A stretch of DNA of 64,000 nucleotides from an uncultured virus (IMG/VR IMGVR_UViG_3300020557_000008). Lineage: Duplodnaviria; Heunggongvirae; Uroviricota; Caudoviricetes. The DNA lies in the IMG/VR virus record IMGVR_UViG_3300020557_000008, positions 1 to 64,000 of that record; one strand, written 5' to 3'. The position numbers and the translations under genes are program-made. This document shows positions 2,829 through 19,976 of this stretch, in pieces. Every line of letters starts with the position of its first letter. Positions within the stretch are counted from its first letter, which is position 1. The notes beneath the pieces are model-generated. The model made no database searches, was not told where the DNA came from, and saw only the letters and a program-made list of their open reading frames with translations.

Positions 2829-3026
2829 TTAGGCGTTGGCGGTTTCTGTCTTTGCCTTCACGGTTGGGTTTCCCAACTTGCGAGCGACATCTACGATGTC
2901 ACCAGTCAGGTTCAGGAACACCGTTCCGTTCTCTCCGTCTCGGAGTTCAATGCTCAACATTCCGTTGGTCATTTCTGCCGTGACATCGTCCGCGGTGAGG
3001 TGGACGAATAGGTGTGTGCTTATCAT
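2829..3026 (-). CDS. Hypothetical protein
   Basis: AAGGAAGGAAA RBS; promoter 3073-3101. Confidence 0.7.
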   Translation of the reverse strand: MISTHLFVHLTADDVTAEMTNGMLSIELRDGENGTVFLNLTGDIVDVARKLGNPTVKAKTETANA

Positions 3027-3202
3027 TTCTGTTTCCTTCCTTGTTGTGTAAGGCGGTTGCCCTACTACTATTAGTGTATCACACTTGCGAGAGTTTCGCA
3101 ACTCTTTGCGCCACCTTTTTTAGATTCTGCCCCAGCGGCCTTCGCTGGGCGAGTTTGGGGTGGCAAGGCAAGGAGGTAGAACCCTGCCACCCTCACTCGT
3201 TC

Positions 3203-3490
3203 TTATCGGGCTACGGCGAGCGAAGCCTTGTTCAGGGCATCGCTACTCTCTCGCCATGCGTCGCTATCGGCTGTCTCTCCGTAGAACGCTTGACGATAGA
3301 TACGCTTGCCTTTGTGGTACAACTCAACCATAACGGCGTTTGCCTTTATGCTGTCGTCGTATGTCACTTCGGCTTCGTAGGTGACTTTGGTAATCTCGTC
3401 GTAAGCCCACCCCGTAGGGAATAACTCACTGGATACCTCAATCCACTCGCCCGTTCGTTTTGCGCCTCTCGGCAGTCTGTAATAACTCAC
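3203..3490 (-). CDS. Hypothetical protein
   Basis: ORF, RBS, promoter 3539-3567. Confidence 0.7.
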   Translation of the reverse strand: MSYYRLPRGAKRTGEWIEVSSELFPTGWAYDEITKVTYEAEVTYDDSIKANAVMVELYHKGKRIYRQAFYGETADSDAWRESSDALNKASLAVAR

Positions 3491-3796
3491 TTCATTACCT
3501 CTCTCTCTTGTAGGTACTTCGGTTTCCCTACTAACTACACTATACCAGATTGTTAGACACTTGACAACCTTATCGGGCAGATTCCCGAAGAATCTTTTTG
3601 CCGGCTCAGGTTGACTTTTCGCTCATTGTGTGATACAATGATAATAGACGGGGGAGAGGAGAGCCCGCCGCGGCCTCCGCCCGAACGTATGTTCGCCCGC
3701 GCGCCCCTCTTCGCCCGGGGGTCGTTCTCTTCCCTCAATCTACTTTTATTTTACAGTGGGGGTGTAACACGGTTTCCCGCGCTACACCCCCATTTT

Positions 3797-4108
3797 TTAT
3801 TTTGCGAAACTCGCTACTGCTACCGCTATGTCCCAAGCATCAAACTCATCTGCTGTACCGTAGTTTTCAGTAGCGTTTTTACCGAAGTACGGCAGATTAT
3901 CTTCTAGGTGTTCACGCAACGCTTCAAGCGTTGAGGGACTATCGATAATCTCTTTCAGAACCTCACCTACTTGGCGGAGTCTGTTTCCGTTGTTGGTGTT
4001 CCGAAACTGATAAGCCTCGAACCAATAGGTTCGGCTTTCTTCTGCTTGTTTTAGTGCTTTGCGTAACTCATCAACATACTCTTGGGTAATCGGCTGTTCG
4101 GTAATCAT
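3797..4108 (-). CDS. Hypothetical protein
   Basis: AAGGAG RBS, promoter. Confidence 0.7.
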   Translation of the reverse strand: MITEQPITQEYVDELRKALKQAEESRTYWFEAYQFRNTNNGNRLRQVGEVLKEIIDSPSTLEALREHLEDNLPYFGKNATENYGTADEFDAWDIAVAVASFAK

Positions 4109-4309
4109 TGTTTTTTCTCCTTGTTGTTTTGGTTTTGCCTTACACTCTAAGTATAGCATCTGTTAGACACTTTGTCTACTCAGAATAGACATTGTGAAAT
4201 GTTTCTTTTGCCCGCCGCGGCCTCCGCCCGCGGGCAATTTTCTCCCACACCCTATTTTAGCGTGGGGGTGTTACACAGTTATTTTTTACTGTGTAACACC
4301 CCTTTGCTA

Positions 4310-4588
4310 CTAGGCGTTTGCCGTTGCGAGTTTGTCGTAACGGTGTACGGGCTTTATGTCTTCATTCACTGCTCGCCCGATGCTCTTAGCATTGAGTAGG
4401 TCAGTGAGAGTGCCAAGCATGACATCGTAGTAGACATACTCGCTACCGTTTGTGTACTCAATTACCAATTCACCGTAGGCGAGTTCGTAATTGTCCGACT
4501 CGCCATGTTGGGCGAGGTCAATCTCGCTCACCGTATAAGTGAGTTTCCTCACTGCCGTTGAGTTGAGTTGGGTTACTTCTATTTTCAT
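4310..4588 (-). CDS. KTSC-domain protein
   Basis: Pattern NSTAV...LVIEYTNGSEYVYYDV...LLNAKSIGRAVNEDIK typical of KTSC. Confidence 0.75.
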   Translation of the reverse strand: MKIEVTQLNSTAVRKLTYTVSEIDLAQHGESDNYELAYGELVIEYTNGSEYVYYDVMLGTLTDLLNAKSIGRAVNEDIKPVHRYDKLATANA

Positions 4589-4676
4589 TTTGTTTCTCCT
4601 TTGTTGTTTTGTTATTGCCTTACACTTCTACTATACCGTTGGTGGGGCAGATTTCCAACCTGCCCCACCAGATTTT

Positions 4677-4859
4677 TTAGCGTCCGAATTCTTCCTGCCA
4701 GAGTTCTTCTGCTTTGTCTAGGATTCTGTCGGCGTAGCGAGTGCTCATGTAGTCGTCGTCAATCCACGGAATGAATCCGTTTCCTGCGAGGTGCTCTATG
4801 GCTCTCTCTACGAATCGCTCTTGCTCTTCTTCGCCTAGTTCACTGAATTCGGTAATCAT
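4677..4859 (-). CDS. Small acidic hypothetical protein
   Basis: ORF with AGGAG RBS. Confidence 0.7.
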   Translation of the reverse strand: MITEFSELGEEEQERFVERAIEHLAGNGFIPWIDDDYMSTRYADRILDKAEELWQEEFGR

Positions 4860-4959
4860 TGGTTTCTCCTTTGTGTTGTTTTGCCTTACACTCTAATTGT
4901 ACAGCATGGGTGTACCATAATTGCGCATTTACGCCATTTGTCACACAATTGTCATAATC

Positions 4960-4980
4960 GGCTGTTAGGCTCACCTAACA
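4960..4980. promoter_or_regulatory. DtxR/IdeR-type iron box-like palindrome
   Basis: GGCTGTTAGGCTCACCTAA, 14/19 to TTAGGTTAGGCTAACCTAA. Confidence 0.6.
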
Positions 4981-5035
4981 AGTGATAGTGCGAATTTTCA
5001 CAAGCCTCCGACCGAAGGTCGGCTCCCGGTAGCCC

Positions 5036-5093
5036 AAAATATGGTGTTTCCTGATAATCGGATTTATTTAGTGCTGTGGCGTTTCCCTTGGGG
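5036..5093 (+). repeat. Dispersed ~57-bp element, copy 2
   Basis: AAAATATGGTGTTTC...GGATTTATT...GCGTTTCCCTTGGGG. Confidence 0.9.
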
Positions 5094-5148
5094 CTGAGCG
5101 AAGGGGGTGAGCGCCCGGCCTGGTCGCCCACCCCACATCATTTTGCTC

Positions 5149-5301
5149 TTAGAGCCACTCAGAGACGTCGCCGTCGGCGATTTCTGAGTAGTCCAATCCA
5201 TGAGCGTCGGCTACTGCTTGCCAGAAGTCTTCTTCTGTAAGCGGTGCTTGACCCTCTTGAATGTCTTCTGGGAGATGCTCCCACCACGTTGTTTTATTCA
5301 T
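5149..5301 (-). CDS. Small acidic protein (50 aa, MNKTTWWEHL...)
   Basis: Read manually; GGAAAGGA RBS; promoter. Confidence 0.7.
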   Translation of the reverse strand: MNKTTWWEHLPEDIQEGQAPLTEEDFWQAVADAHGLDYSEIADGDVSEWL

Positions 5302-5325
5302 TGTGTTTCCTTTCCTGTTGGGTAA

Positions 5326-5526
5326 TTACAGTGTATCACACTCTAGGAGTTTTAGCAACTCTTTCTGGGTCATTTCCTGAATCTGTGCCGCGTCTAGGTC
5401 TGCGGGTTTGATGACCTCAATGATTTGGCCCCTGCCTTGCGCGACTTCGCGGGCTGAGTAGAGGCTGAGGTACGGGCCGAGGTAGATATCTCCCGCGGCT
5501 GTGTTGAGTTTGATGATGTAGTTCAT
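5326..5526 (-). CDS. Hypothetical protein
   Basis: AAGGAG RBS before MNYII. Confidence 0.65.
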   Translation of the reverse strand: MNYIIKLNTAAGDIYLGPYLSLYSAREVAQGRGQIIEVIKPADLDAAQIQEMTQKELLKLLECDTL

Positions 5527-5589
5527 GTTTCTCCTTGGCCTCCGGGCGGCGGCTGGTGGGGCACTTCTCGTCCCCACCAGCCTGACCCG

Positions 5590-6054
5590 TTAGGCGTTGA
5601 TTAGTTCTTTCTGAGCCTTGACCCACTGCTCGTAGTTCCAGGCTTCGGTTGTCACGATTGCCTTGATTACCTTGAGGGGAATCTCGGCTTGGTTATTGCC
5701 GTACTTCACGGCGTTGTTTGCCCACTCAGTGATGCTGTAGGTGCTGTGGTTGGTGCTGAGTCCGACCATCTCATCTACCATCGCTGGCGTGATGTAGAGG
5801 TTGTGGCGTTCGCCATCTTCTCTCCACTCGTACATCATCGGGCTTTGGCTCATCGCCTCAACAGCCTTAGACCGACCGTAGTAGTCAGCCGCGTTGGCTT
5901 CGGTGATGCGCCCGTATCCGACTACGCCACCCCAGAAGATGAACGTCTGAATGTCGCCGCGTACGTTGTCATGACCGTACTCGTCTTTGACCCAGACTCC
6001 CTCGGGGTTCTTGGCGTAAGCCTTTGTATTTCCGATATCCCATGTCAATGGCAT
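5590..6054 (-). CDS. Hypothetical protein
   Basis: GGAAAGG RBS, leader hairpin, promoter. Confidence 0.75.
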   Translation of the reverse strand: MPLTWDIGNTKAYAKNPEGVWVKDEYGHDNVRGDIQTFIFWGGVVGYGRITEANAADYYGRSKAVEAMSQSPMMYEWREDGERHNLYITPAMVDEMVGLSTNHSTYSITEWANNAVKYGNNQAEIPLKVIKAIVTTEAWNYEQWVKAQKELINA

Positions 6055-6170
6055 TGTGTTTACCTTTCCTTTGTTTGTGTGGGGCGGTTGCCCCACTACT
6101 AATATTGTATCACCTATTCTGCTGTCTCACAACCTCGGCGGCAAGGTTTTGCCTCCGGGCGGTGCTCGCC

Positions 6171-6407
6171 CTACCTTTCGGTAGGGACGAGACCAGCGGG
6201 CTTCAGTGAGTTATTCAGCACGAGGCCGTAGAAGTGGCCTGTGACTGCATCCTTCACGAACGAGTGTCCCATTGTGCCGTTTGGCGGTGCGCCAAGGCCA
6301 CCTGAGCACTTCACCACGAGGGTTCCACGCTTTGGCTGGTGTGGGCGGGCATCAAAGATGTCCATCCCGACGGGTTCGTATCGGTATTGCCTGATTTTCT
6401 TGGTCAT
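6171..6407 (-). CDS. Hypothetical protein
   Basis: GGAGG RBS, promoter. Confidence 0.7.
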   Translation of the reverse strand: MTKKIRQYRYEPVGMDIFDARPHQPKRGTLVVKCSGGLGAPPNGTMGHSFVKDAVTGHFYGLVLNNSLKPAGLVPTER

Positions 6408-6479
6408 TGTGTTTTCCTCCATGATGTTAGTATAACAGATGTTTTGCGGTATTGCAACCTTCTTTTATTCCTTTATTGC

Positions 6480-6560
6480 CCCTGCCGGCTTTGCCGGAGG
6501 GAGGTCTTGGGCTGGTGGGGGAAGGAGGTAAGGAACCCCACCAGCCGCACTCGACCTATG
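6480..6560 (-). ncRNA. Candidate sRNA with anti-SD loop UUCCUUACCUCCUUC
   Basis: Promoter 6566-6594; no ORF or RBS downstream; perfect 11-bp stem 6510-6520/6536-6546. Confidence 0.65.
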
Positions 6561-6822
6561 CTTTCAGTGTATCACACTTTTCACGCTCTCGCAACTCTGC
6601 CAGCGTGATTTCACCCTTTATCAAGGATGCCCACTCTGATAGGTCTGCGACATTGAGACGCTCCGGCTCGGTGCCGCAAGGGTACTTGGCGGCTTGGTGC
6701 CAAGCCTTTGCGTCACATTCTCCGCAAACGGGCGTGCCGTCAAACGACCACCACGAATGCGTGAGGTAGTTAGCCTCAGCCTCTTCTTTAGTTCCCTGAA
6801 ACGGGACTGGAACATTTGCCAT
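6556..6822 (-). CDS. Hypothetical protein (CxxC)
   Basis: GAAAGG RBS. Confidence 0.7.
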   Translation of the reverse strand: MANVPVPFQGTKEEAEANYLTHSWWSFDGTPVCGECDAKAWHQAAKYPCGTEPERLNVADLSEWASLIKGEITLAELREREKCDTLKA

Positions 6823-6898
6823 TTTCTTACCTTTCTTGTGTTGGTGGTGCTTCTGCCCCACATCTACAGAATACCAGATGTGGGGCAGAATGACAACC

Positions 6899-7276
6899 TT
6901 ATTTTAGGATTTTTTCTAGTGTCTGTTGGTAGGTCTGCCATTGTGACGGGATACCGTTTTTTCCCATTGCCACAGCCTTGTCAAAGTCTGTTTCGCCAGA
7001 GCCCAGGATTTTTCGGACTGCCAGAATGCGGTCACGGACTGCTTCACGGTCTGCGCTATCACCGTCAAACGGGAATAGCGGGGACGGGTCAGTCAGATGA
7101 GCCATTGCCGCATCACAGATTTCGTCGTATGTGGCAAACGGATACAGCGAGGTTTCTTCACTGCTGAATAGATAGAACTCACAGCAGTATTCGCTGAACT
7201 GTTCGTATCGGTCTATTCTCTCTAATCTCTCTATTGCGCTTCCAGCATACGGGCTGGTACCTTGTGTGGTGGTCAT
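6899..7276 (-). CDS. Hypothetical protein, probably leaderless
   Basis: CATAAT 6 nt before ATG. Confidence 0.7.
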   Translation of the reverse strand: MTTTQGTSPYAGSAIERLERIDRYEQFSEYCCEFYLFSSEETSLYPFATYDEICDAAMAHLTDPSPLFPFDGDSADREAVRDRILAVRKILGSGETDFDKAVAMGKNGIPSQWQTYQQTLEKILK

Positions 7277-7405
7277 ACATACATTATGCCGTACTGTTAG
7301 ACAGATTACAACCTTATTCGTATTACAGAAGTATTACATTTGGCTTGTGCTTGTTCGCACTTTCACAAGCCCGGGGCCGGTGAAATCGATTTTTGCCCCT
7401 GCCCC

Positions 7406-7463
7406 GAAATATGGTGTTCCTTGATTATTGGATTTATTCTGCTTTGCGCCGTTCCCCTTGGGG
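7406..7463 (+). repeat. Dispersed ~57-bp element, copy 3
   Basis: GAAATATGGTGTTCCTTGATTATTGGATTTATT...GCCGTTCCCCTTGGGG. Confidence 0.9.
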
Positions 7464-7506
7464 CTGGGCTGGTGGGGGATTGCCCCACCAGCCTCGCTGA
7501 CCATTC

Positions 7507-8781: not shown

Positions 8782-8911
8782 TGTGTTTTCCTTTCTTGTG
8801 TTGTTACTTCTATTGTATCACACTTATTGTCAGTTTGCAACTCCGGTTGGAGATTCTGCCCCTGCGCTCGGGCGAGCCGTGGGCTGGTGGTTTCCCACCA
8901 GCCCGACAGAC

Positions 8912-12714: not shown

Positions 12715-12932
12715 TAGTGCTTCCCGATGTCTAGAAAACCTGTTTCGTTGCCTTCTGGGTCAGACATTACGAGAGCGTCGGTCCCATCAGTGAACTCCAA
12801 AATGCATGTTGGTGTTTTTGAATAAAGCCAACCTGTTTCTTTGTTCTCTTCGTCCGTCAGTTCACGAACGTTCTTGATGGTCTTGCCGACAAGCGACTCA
12901 GCGTAATGAGTTTTGTTTATTACTGTGCTCAT
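12714..12932 (-). CDS. Hypothetical protein (...MSDPEGNETGFL)
   Basis: ATGA-coupled ORF. Confidence 0.7.
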   Translation of the reverse strand: MSTVINKTHYAESLVGKTIKNVRELTDEENKETGWLYSKTPTCILEFTDGTDALVMSDPEGNETGFLDIGKH

Positions 12933-13162
12933 ACCTTGATGCCTGTCACGAGTTCTTCTGGACGCGTATCAAGCGCGTAGCAGATACGGAAAAACGTATC
13001 CAGCGACGGAGAGAAGTGTCCATTCTCGATTCTGTTGATGGTCTTGCGGTCAATGCCTGCGCTCTTAGCCAAATCGCCCTGAGAGAGACCGATGGTCTCG
13101 CGCAGGCTCTTTACTCGGCTTGCAACTTCAAGCAGTGCCTTTTTGTTCATTGCGTTGTTCAT
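12929..13162 (-). CDS. XRE-family helix-turn-helix regulator
   Basis: LRETIGLSQGDLAKSAGIDRKTINRIENGHFSPSL. Confidence 0.9.
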   Translation of the reverse strand: MNNAMNKKALLEVASRVKSLRETIGLSQGDLAKSAGIDRKTINRIENGHFSPSLDTFFRICYALDTRPEELVTGIKV

Positions 13163-13660: not shown

Positions 13661-13905
13661 GACGGTTATATGACGGTTAAGGGACGGTTAGATAGAAATG
13701 GTACAGGCTCAAACCCTTACTGGGTAAGGGTTTCCGGGCTTTTGTACCATATTTGCGGGTGACAATCTGTCACCTTGGGGGTGACAACCTGTCACCCCGG
13801 GGGTGACAACCTGTCACCCCCTAGTGACAATCTGTCACTACTTGTGGCGGCCGTCACATACTACATGTAGTGGGGTGACAACCTGTCACCCCCTACATCT
13901 AGAGA
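13661..13905. repeat. Iteron-like array, candidate replication origin
   Basis: GACGGTTA x3 at 11-bp period (13661, 13672, 13683); palindrome AAACCCTTAC-TGG-GTAAGGGTTT (13711-13733); GTGACAA(T/C)CTGTCAC x5 (13759, 13781, 13803, 13824, 13875). Confidence 0.75.
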
Positions 13906-15234: not shown

Positions 15235-15482
15235 AGCATCCCCAATTCCTTGAGGTCGTTGTTTACTTGCTCTTGAACCCAGACGCGGTTGGCTTCAGAC
15301 GCCGCGTAATAGGCGACTGCCTGCTTGGTTTGGGTCTGCTTGAGTTGCTCGCCGTAGCCAGCCTTCTCAAGCAGTCCCCAAACTTCGTCTAAGCACTCGC
15401 CGTCATTCGCCTCGTCTCCGTGGCGCGTAAGGGCTGTGATGATGTCGTTGATAAGGGTTGGGTAATCGGTTGTGTTGGTCAT
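15231..15482 (-). CDS. Hypothetical protein, leaderless
   Basis: TACACT just upstream of ATG. Confidence 0.7.
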   Translation of the reverse strand: MTNTTDYPTLINDIITALTRHGDEANDGECLDEVWGLLEKAGYGEQLKQTQTKQAVAYYAASEANRVWVQEQVNNDLKELGML

Positions 15483-15519
15483 ACTTAGAGTGTATCACAC
15501 CATTTGCCGTTTGACAACC

Positions 15520-19775: not shown

Positions 19776-19976
19776 TTACTCCTCTGGGATTAGGTTGGTA
19801 TTGAGTGTAAGCCAGTGGCGAAGGTATGACGACATGTCTGCATACATTGCGCCTTCCAGCATCGGGTCAAAGTCGCCGCCGAATGATTCGGGGAAATGCT
19901 TGACGATGGTCGTCCAGAAAGACTCAAGGCCCTTGTCAACGGCCTCTTCTACACGTGCTTCTAGTTGGATATTCAT
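19776..19976 (-). CDS. Hypothetical protein
   Basis: GAAGGAGGTG RBS. Confidence 0.7.
   Translation of the reverse strand: MNIQLEARVEEAVDKGLESFWTTIVKHFPESFGGDFDPMLEGAMYADMSSYLRHWLTLNTNLIPEE

Follow-up and report, generated by a model that had tools for sequence, protein, structure and literature searches.

A conserved multi-copy hairpin with an anti-Shine-Dalgarno-type loop behind early genes of uncultured freshwater phages, and its possible pairing with Shine-Dalgarno sites

The 3′ tail of the 16S rRNA carries ACCUCCU, within a stretch that extends as ...UCACCUCCUU... The locus studied here raises the question of whether a phage displays the same sequence in an RNA of its own, and what such an RNA may do. 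According to a preliminary description, a dedicated promoter inside the 3′ end of the gene at 6556–6822 fires into an ORF-less stretch and produces a hairpin whose loop mimics the anti-Shine-Dalgarno (anti-SD) end of the 16S rRNA, which could mask the SD leaders of other messages, those of the host included.

The window, that is the whole stretch of 64,000 nucleotides that was analysed, covers positions 1 to 64,000 of the IMG/VR record IMGVR_UViG_3300020557_000008, a genome of 76.6 kb in a single contig with siphovirus tail genes. A WhiB gene scores above the Pfam cut-off, the nearest isolate relatives of the proteins are mainly actinophages, and near-identical DNA is found in lake-water metagenomes; no DNA match to isolate phages was returned by megablast or blastn. 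The element described below belongs to a clade of uncultured freshwater siphoviruses, the host of which is probably an actinobacterium.

The hairpin behind gpX and its relatives

All the genes that flank the flagged hairpin lie on the minus strand. The upstream one, which we call gpX (6556–6822, minus strand), codes for an 88-residue cysteine-rich protein whose Pfam match is sub-threshold only, and it ends in a TAG codon at 6558–6556. The hairpin, hereafter copy A (6502–6557, minus strand), begins within this stop codon: a lower helix of 5 bp pairs 6553–6557 with 6502–6506, and an upper helix of 11 bp, 9 nt from the stop codon, pairs 6536–6546 with 6510–6520 (on the minus strand, GGCTGGTGGGG, 6546–6536, and CCCCACCAGCC, 6520–6510). 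The loop of 15 nt (6535–6521) reads, on the gene strand, TTCCTTACCTCCTTC in DNA letters and UUCCUUACCUCCUUC as RNA. The 11-bp stem (6510–6546) and the CCUCC-type loop of the preliminary description are both present on the gene strand, and the stretch is indeed ORF-less, in that no minus-strand ORF of 30 residues or more was found within 6423–6555.

Copy A is supported by folding, by a scan for the stem pattern and by a covariance model (R1, 78.8 bits). The 71-nt element has a predicted folding energy of −31.1 kcal/mol (z = −4.3), which none of 200 shuffled sequences reaches, its loop is predicted to be unpaired, and the fold of the 140-nt intergenic RNA agrees with that of the 71-nt element. 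A second small hairpin (6480–6501, minus strand), in which CCUCCCUCC pairs with the recurrent motif GGCAGGGG, appears in both the minimum-free-energy and the centroid structures. Beyond it lies P2 (6429–6457, minus strand; TTGCAA-17-TATACT), the promoter of the downstream gene, which is in the promoter list and scores 30.8 bits with the weight matrix described below. The downstream gene (6171–6422, minus strand) has its ATG at 6422, 6 nt past the −10 element of P2, which is a leaderless-type start; there is also a second, in-frame ATG at 6407, with GGAGG ahead of it at 6416–6420.

The anti-SD-loop hairpin is present twice in this phage. Copy B (3150–3199, minus strand; 73.9 bits with the covariance model, −30.5 kcal/mol, z = −4.7) is located 10 nt past the stop codon of an unrelated gene (3204–3490); its upper stem, GGGUGGCAGGG / CCUUGCCACCC, differs from that of copy A, and its loop is UUCUACCUCCUUG.

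Relatives were sought by stem searches and by a search with the gpX protein, which does not depend on the stem. Exact stem scans of metagenome and genome contigs returned mostly unrelated G+C-rich hairpins. The covariance model R1, built from ten sequences, recovered more copies, behind other genes and with very different upper stems. Across the related freshwater phage contigs, 14 instances were counted, and their upper stems are of 6 distinct kinds, which differ by compensatory changes; these instances come from few lineages and several are close relatives, so that the counts overstate their independence. One architecture is common to all 14: a lower helix of 4–6 bp, an internal loop, an upper helix of 10–12 bp and a loop of 10–15 nt. 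The lower helices vary yet pair (GGUC/GACC, CGAGU/ACUCG, CAGGU/ACCUG). In the alignment of ten sequences, all 110 cells of the upper helix are paired and four pairs are changed on both sides; the covariation score is 0.260, compared to 0.111 for shuffles (0 of 500 reach 0.260) and at most 0.10 for slid controls.

The loop, on the contrary, is kept while the stems vary: its core, CCUCC(C)UU, is found in all 14 instances, and ACCUCC in 12 of them. The gpX homologues, down to 45% identity, retain the hairpin, and its loop contains CCUCC in every case; the loops behind them read UUCCUUACCUCCUUC/U, UUCACCUCCUUC, UUCCCUCCUUC, AUUUCCUCCCUUA and UUCACCUCCCUUU, the last of which is carried by the stem of the relative G004, where a G-C pair is replaced by A-U in a compensated manner and the stem contains GCTAGTGG. 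This outcome is the opposite of a conserved stem with a drifting loop, which the preliminary description had named as incompatible with its proposal, and its assignment of the strand is supported as well, CCUCC being on the gene strand in all the relatives. What characterizes the class of anti-SD or C-rich-loop RNAs, a conserved unpaired CCUCC-type loop on a variable stem, is found in 14 of 14 instances across 6 stems. We conclude with high confidence, from these comparisons of sequences, that the hairpin is a genuine RNA element, conserved and structured, whose loop is of the anti-SD type.

The stem of copy A is also found under other loops. Its stem–gap–stem pattern occurs three times in the window, compared to none in 100 shuffles; the three identical stems enclose unrelated loops of 10, 15 and 5 nt, and a variant of the stem occurs a fourth time. 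Apart from copy A, these hairpins are located at 5551–5582 (minus strand; loop ACGAGAAGUG, 7 nt past a stop codon), 7467–7493 (minus strand; loop CAAUC, 13 nt past a stop codon, with variant breakpoints at its edges) and 8881–8904 (minus strand; stem variant GGGCUGGUGG, loop GAAA, 7 nt past a stop codon), so that each of the four lies 7–13 nt past a stop codon. The idea of a conserved stem with a free loop, which the window alone suggested, was overturned by the relatives, in which the loop is kept on varying stems. As a separate observation, the post-gene hairpins at 2787–2820 and 5551–5582 (minus strand) have a common loop, (G)ACGAGAAGUG, on compensated different stems (GGGCUGAGGGG and GGCUGGUGGGG, respectively), which makes a second case of a loop kept while the stem has changed; G001 does not have this loop at the orthologous position.

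The 3′ slot of early genes and the promoter P1

Each of the 14 copies is located 9–16 nt past the stop codon of a small early gene. They stand behind at least six different genes and ahead of at least four different downstream genes, and the element starts in or just past the stop codon and ends shortly ahead of the next promoter. Since the downstream gene differs among the relatives, the element appears to travel with the 3′ end of the transcription unit. In distant gpX homologues (L214–L219), the equivalent slot is occupied by canonical terminators, that is hairpins followed by a U-tract, without CCUCC. This occupancy, together with the position at the 3′ boundary of the unit, leads us to infer that the element is the 3′-terminal hairpin, terminator or stabiliser, of early mRNAs. 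It has one trait of an intrinsic terminator, a G+C-rich hairpin directly 3′ of the gene (a stem of 11 bp, 9 nt past the stop codon), and lacks others: the loop of copy A has 15 nt instead of 3–8 and its tail is CAAGACCUCCC instead of a U-tract. The anti-SD hairpins are devoid of U-tract, and loops of 10–15 nt are atypical for intrinsic terminators; a terminator scan did not list copy A. No RNA run was listed as covering the locus, and a sequencing run guessed to be of RNA contributed two 151-nt pieces only, which map to 6927–7077 and 7104–7253.

Regarding the promoter, the preliminary description was right about its existence. P1 (6566–6594, minus strand) is a TTGCGA-17-TACACT promoter with a TGTGA extension, whose hexamers (TTGCGA, 6594–6589; TACACT, 6571–6566) lie within the last 13 codons of gpX; it belongs to the repeat family D2 and is in the promoter list. 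A generic sigma-70 scan does not list it, as it matches 8 of 12 positions by our own count and the threshold of the scan is 9 of 12. With a weight matrix derived from 28 other early promoters of the phage, P1 being left out, it scores 30.3 bits (the median of the training set is 28.3) and ranks 13th among 153,204 positions on both strands, which makes it a genuine member of the early-promoter family of this phage. This family comprises about 30 near-identical promoters, RGTTGCNA-N14-TGTGATACAMT, all on the minus strand between 135 and 17693 of the window (for example at 681, 2751, 8840, 12566 and 15517). Nearly each small early gene has its own copy, and most copies are followed by AGTAGTGGGG..., the start of a short 5′ leader hairpin. 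The standard unit consists of a −10 element, a 5′ hairpin and a leader, and at P1 it is copy A that occupies the place of the 5′ hairpin.

That the promoter is dedicated to the hairpin, as was also claimed, is true of this phage, G001 and L078, and does not extend to the family: P1 is ahead of these three distinct hairpins only and is missing before the other 11 instances (including those of G002, G003, L137 and L118), where the hairpin is the 3′ UTR of the upstream gene. In the three relatives that have P1, gpX carries a C-terminal extension of 13–14 codons which is the promoter sequence read as protein. The distribution of P1 is not that of a stand-alone sRNA gene, whose dedicated promoter would be conserved with the RNA; being found in only three relatives, P1 is a lineage-specific addition, to judge from the contigs compared, and not part of the hairpin element. 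Type I 3′UTR-derived sRNAs, such as MicL and DapZ, are short RNAs transcribed from a promoter in the 3′ part of a coding region up to the terminator hairpin of the same gene. MicL and DapZ are Hfq-dependent, enterobacterial and have their seed outside the terminator loop, whereas here the promoter is found in three relatives only. We also observed a perfect 13-bp inverted repeat, CTGCCCCACATCT ... AGATGTGGGGCAG (6853–6888), across the −10 region of the promoter of gpX itself (6896–6868); it is identical in L078, missing in G001, and could serve as an operator or form a 5′ hairpin.

Pairing with Shine-Dalgarno sites and competing explanations

On the sense strand, and in a region predicted to be unpaired, the loop has the letters (A)CCUCC(C)UU, which are those at the core of the 16S 3′ tail. 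In the mechanism that we propose, the 3′-terminal hairpin of an early mRNA would display this core in a large open loop, the loop would base-pair with SD sequences in the same or in other mRNAs, and this pairing would decrease ribosome loading, as in the case of C-rich-loop riboregulators and of the icaR 3′UTR. In this phage and in its two close relatives, where P1 is directly ahead, the element would also form the 5′ end of its own transcript, either an RNA of about 55 nt, should transcription stop at the hairpin, or else a leader of about 150 nt for the next gene. The masking of SD sites by the loop of a conserved, multi-copy 3′ element is the best-supported mechanism for the flagged hairpin, and we consider that its chances of being correct are about even. 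If it is, the phage would have a cheap, protein-free means to tune or shut translation, of its own early genes or of those of the host, and the 55-nt RNA would be a defined tool for studies of how translation is controlled in Actinobacteria, which have both leaderless and SD-led messages.

Which messages would be affected depends on the leaders. According to the preliminary description, most early genes have a GAAAGG or AAGGAG leader or are leaderless, and many do, by inspection of about 21 leaders of the phage: nine have GAAAGG, five AAGGAG and two GGAGG, and four genes have an ATG of the leaderless type. In the latter, the ATG is exactly 6 nt past the −10 element, at 15482, 8378, 6422 and in the 2714 region (promoters at 15517, 8413, 6457 and 2751, respectively). 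The genes that follow the promoters at 6457 and 2751 read AUGGAGG..., with a second in-frame ATG 12–15 nt further on, and may start either as leaderless messages or from an SD site. A selective action on host mRNAs is not indicated, since the loop also matches leaders of the phage itself: by inspection, the first half of the loop of copy A, UUCCUU, matches the AAGGAA leaders, and CUCCUU matches AAGGAG. For this reason we favour a general damping of translation, or a damping of phage early genes, over a takeover aimed at the host. In a takeover, an abundant mimic of the 16S tail, made from two early 3′ UTRs and, in this lineage, also from a dedicated promoter, would mask strong GGAGG-type sites throughout the cell and tilt translation in favour of leaderless and weak-SD phage messages, by means of RNA only. 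We regard this version as quite unlikely.

Attempts to find a particular partner gave the following results. The best predicted partners of the two loops within the phage are the start regions of the gene at 19976 (66 residues, −17.4 kcal/mol) and of the gene at 72651 (−16.4 kcal/mol), which codes for a 486-residue head-decoration-like protein; both were rejected as specific targets, as the SD sites of their orthologues are either unchanged or vary regardless of the differences between loops. Duplex prediction on the start regions of the phage, combined with the comparison of orthologues, revealed no conserved specific target. The SD sites of the genes upstream and downstream of the hairpins are mostly of the GAAAGG type, with which the loops form only 4–6 bp, and pairing of the loop with the SD of its own or of the next gene amounts to generic complementarity of 4–7 bp, both by inspection. 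A pseudoknot with the downstream GGCAGGGG/GGAGGC motif was discarded too, since this motif also follows hairpins with unrelated loops.

The first competing explanation is that the hairpin is a terminator or a 3′-end stabiliser and nothing else, which stops RNA polymerase or blocks 3′ exonucleases, its loop being kept for another reason, such as the binding of a protein to the RNA. The position of the hairpin directly behind stop codons and ahead of the next promoter is what one expects of such an element, as are the canonical terminators in the same slot of distant homologues and the sister hairpins which, in similar slots, combine the same stem with unrelated loops; the pair 2787–2820/5551–5582, with its common loop on different stems, also fits. 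However, this explanation does not account for an 8-nt motif from the core of the 16S tail being found across six stems and several loop lengths, nor for the recurrence of the loop pattern in unrelated phage hairpins (see below), and the U-tract is missing. We consider it rather unlikely. Were it correct, the constraint on the loop would still be unusual, and the phage would still provide a case, outside T4-like phages, of cassettes made of promoters and hairpins that resemble PeSL.

Another possibility is that the constraint operates on DNA, the identical stems being recombination points of cassettes, like PeSL, or Chi-like sites, and the RNA incidental. The sequence of the stem (S1) is the same in three hairpins of this phage and recurs several times in each relative, and the upper stems of most copies are identical in sequence, not merely complementary. 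Among the DNA contigs from one lake run, we found a joint 6098→7467, which skips 6099–7466, and two hairpin edges, 5582 and 7493, at which loose ends fall; this indicates that natural variants gain or lose cassettes at these hairpins. The relatives also differ by whole cassettes adjoining hairpins (L078, L122). One trait of PeSL, a repeated stem-loop and an early promoter between small early genes, is present here: the phage has about 30 near-identical promoters, many of which are preceded by a hairpin. As the stems are identical and the variants break exactly there, part of the conservation of the stem may be at the DNA level. On the other hand, the compensatory changes among six stems, one of which is GCTAGTGG in G004, point to pairing instead of a fixed DNA word, and DNA exchange leaves the strand-specific conservation of the loop unexplained. 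That DNA exchange accounts for the element as a whole has, in our opinion, a small probability.

The Chi variant of this explanation comes from the octamer GCTGGTGG, the Chi site of E. coli, which is part of the stem. Eight of the 11 occurrences of this octamer are hairpin arms, and the three that are outside hairpins make no excess over expectation (2 genome-wide). We rejected Chi for this scarcity, for the compensated change in G004 and for the other copies whose stems do not contain the octamer, and also because the host is probably an actinobacterium, given the WhiB gene, and not an enterobacterium.

The loop could also act as a decoy for a factor that recognizes the 3′ tail of the 16S rRNA, such as an Era-type assembly GTPase, a ribosomal protein or an anti-SD-cleaving ribonuclease toxin, which would be titrated or diverted during infection. 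Era binds the 16S 3′ tail, and some MazF toxins cut the anti-SD region. Up to 10 consecutive letters of the loop are those of the tail (UCACCUCCUU in G003, L137 and L052), and the A ahead of CCUCC is kept in 12 of the 14 copies, but insertions of 0–4 nt on the 5′ side of ACCUCC make the mimicry discontinuous in most copies, and a candidate partner was not identified in the phage. We see this as improbable. Last, it is very hard to believe that the plus strand is the functional one, with a loop GAAGGAGGUAAGGAA that would serve as a sponge for 30S subunits or for a GGA-binding protein: the plus-strand RNA would fold equally well (−35.2 kcal/mol), but the neighbouring genes and the approximately 30 promoters are all on the minus strand. 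The closest promoter-like site of good quality on the plus strand, at 3611, is separated from the hairpin by about 2.9 kb, the plus-strand GGAGG has no start codon behind it, and all relatives keep the element in the same orientation with respect to the upstream gene.

Wider occurrence, related systems and other features

When IMG/VR was scanned for the loop pattern with only GGG...CCC as flanks, 88 distinct matches were obtained, 30 of which lie in perfect stems of at least 7 bp. Seven of these 30 belong to the present family and 23 have unrelated stems, that is 23 of 81 matches when the family is set aside. In reversed-order controls, stems of at least 7 pairs were found in 1 of 26 matches and, in a second control where some loops are themselves anti-SD-like, in 7 of 93 among the matches listed. 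An ORF of at least 80 codons ends within 60 nt upstream of the non-family hairpins in 21 of 29 cases on the CCUCC strand, compared to 9 of 29 on the other strand. There may thus be a much wider class of anti-SD-loop terminators in phages, as far as can be told from such sequence patterns. The IMG/VR loci in question (L250–L357, for example L314, L354, L253, L282 and L263) include at least 23 unrelated-stem hairpins with a UUC..CCUCCUUY loop; the non-family hairpins are mostly located directly after an ORF on the same strand, and some have U-tracts. If takeover of the host were to be true, this recurrence in many unrelated phage hairpins would mean that it could be a widespread strategy of phages.

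Bacterial riboregulators with anti-SD loops are known, and three of them resemble the present element, which is a hairpin of two co-varying helices that occupies the terminator slot of phage early genes. The 6C sRNA (RF01066; B11 in M. tuberculosis) binds mRNAs by G-C pairs of its C-rich loops, in a chaperone-free manner, according to the excerpted text of PMC6486639. Like the phage hairpin, it is a stem-loop that exposes a C-rich loop, and Actinobacteria are both the host phylum of 6C and the likely host phylum of the phage; 6C is described in these excerpts as a free-standing cellular sRNA with two C-run loops, whereas here a single phage-borne hairpin with a CCUCCUU loop occupies a 3′-UTR slot. 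The cuckoo or CcsR RNAs of Alphaproteobacteria (RSs0680, ar14), for which SD pairing is proposed in the excerpts of PMC4615179, similarly combine highly variable stems with one fixed anti-SD-like loop and exist in several copies per genome. They differ, according to the same excerpts, in having 2–4 adjacent hairpins with the loop CCUCCUCCC, in being bound by Hfq and in belonging to cellular stress regulons, whereas the phage copies are single hairpins behind phage genes.

In the icaR mRNA of Staphylococcus aureus, pairing of the 3′UTR with an SD has been demonstrated (PMC3868564, in part). There too the anti-SD motif is in the 3′ UTR, and it pairs in cis or in trans and lowers translation. The icaR motif, UCCCCUG, is described in that part of the paper as lying 260 nt past the stop codon, having one demonstrated partner and triggering RNase III, whereas here the motif is in a hairpin loop about 25 nt past the stop codon and its partners are predicted only. 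As for the PeSL cassettes of T4-like phages, the excerpts of PMC4122927 present them as units of early promoter and stem-loop that serve as DNA exchange points, a precedent for a role in DNA: as in the present phage, stem-loop and early promoter units are found between small variable early genes. The units of PeSL coincide with the boundaries of insertions and deletions among relatives, which may be the case here as well. The PeSL are from myoviruses of Gram-negative hosts, and their definition, in these excerpts, does not include an anti-SD loop.

Among 4227 Rfam families, none matches the window at its gathering score, and neither of the two hairpins matches any family at an E-value of up to 10 in the region 3000–6700, so that the element is not a member of 6C (RF01066) or of another family by covariance model. 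The sole match of ar14 (RF02344) in that region is elsewhere (4162–4242, plus strand; 17.4 bits compared to a gathering score of 58.8, E = 3.7). A limited full-text search of the literature, judged on titles and abstracts, did not find such a phage element. The class of mechanism is known, but not, by these searches, in the form of a phage-borne hairpin in a terminator slot with a loop from the 16S tail.

Other features of the window deserve mention. A sub-threshold match to the freshwater-2 RNA (4106–4179, minus strand; 19.9 bits compared to a gathering score of 49.9, E = 7.9) overlaps a unit of promoter and leader and is probably due to chance. No tRNA genes were found in the window. Nine copies of a conserved intergenic element of about 65–130 nt are present at 1373, 5034, 7404, 9878, 11326, 13299, 17772, 20216 and 21137; on the gene strand their core reads AAUAAAUCC-N9-11-GGAACACCAUAUUUU-GGG, and this element is without Rfam match, often comes directly after a post-gene hairpin, and is also found in L081, L118, G003 and G004. 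At 13757–13895 there are four copies of a palindromic unit of 22–24 bp, GGGGTGACAACCTGTCACCCC, three of them at 22-bp spacing; the array looks like an operator and is about 600 bp from a gene of the Cro/C1-type HTH family (12929–13162). Last, the segment 52000–64000 is a block of lower G+C content (42–44% compared to about 50%), in which two genes code for glycosyltransferases and six for proteins with 2OG-Fe(II) oxygenase-like domains.
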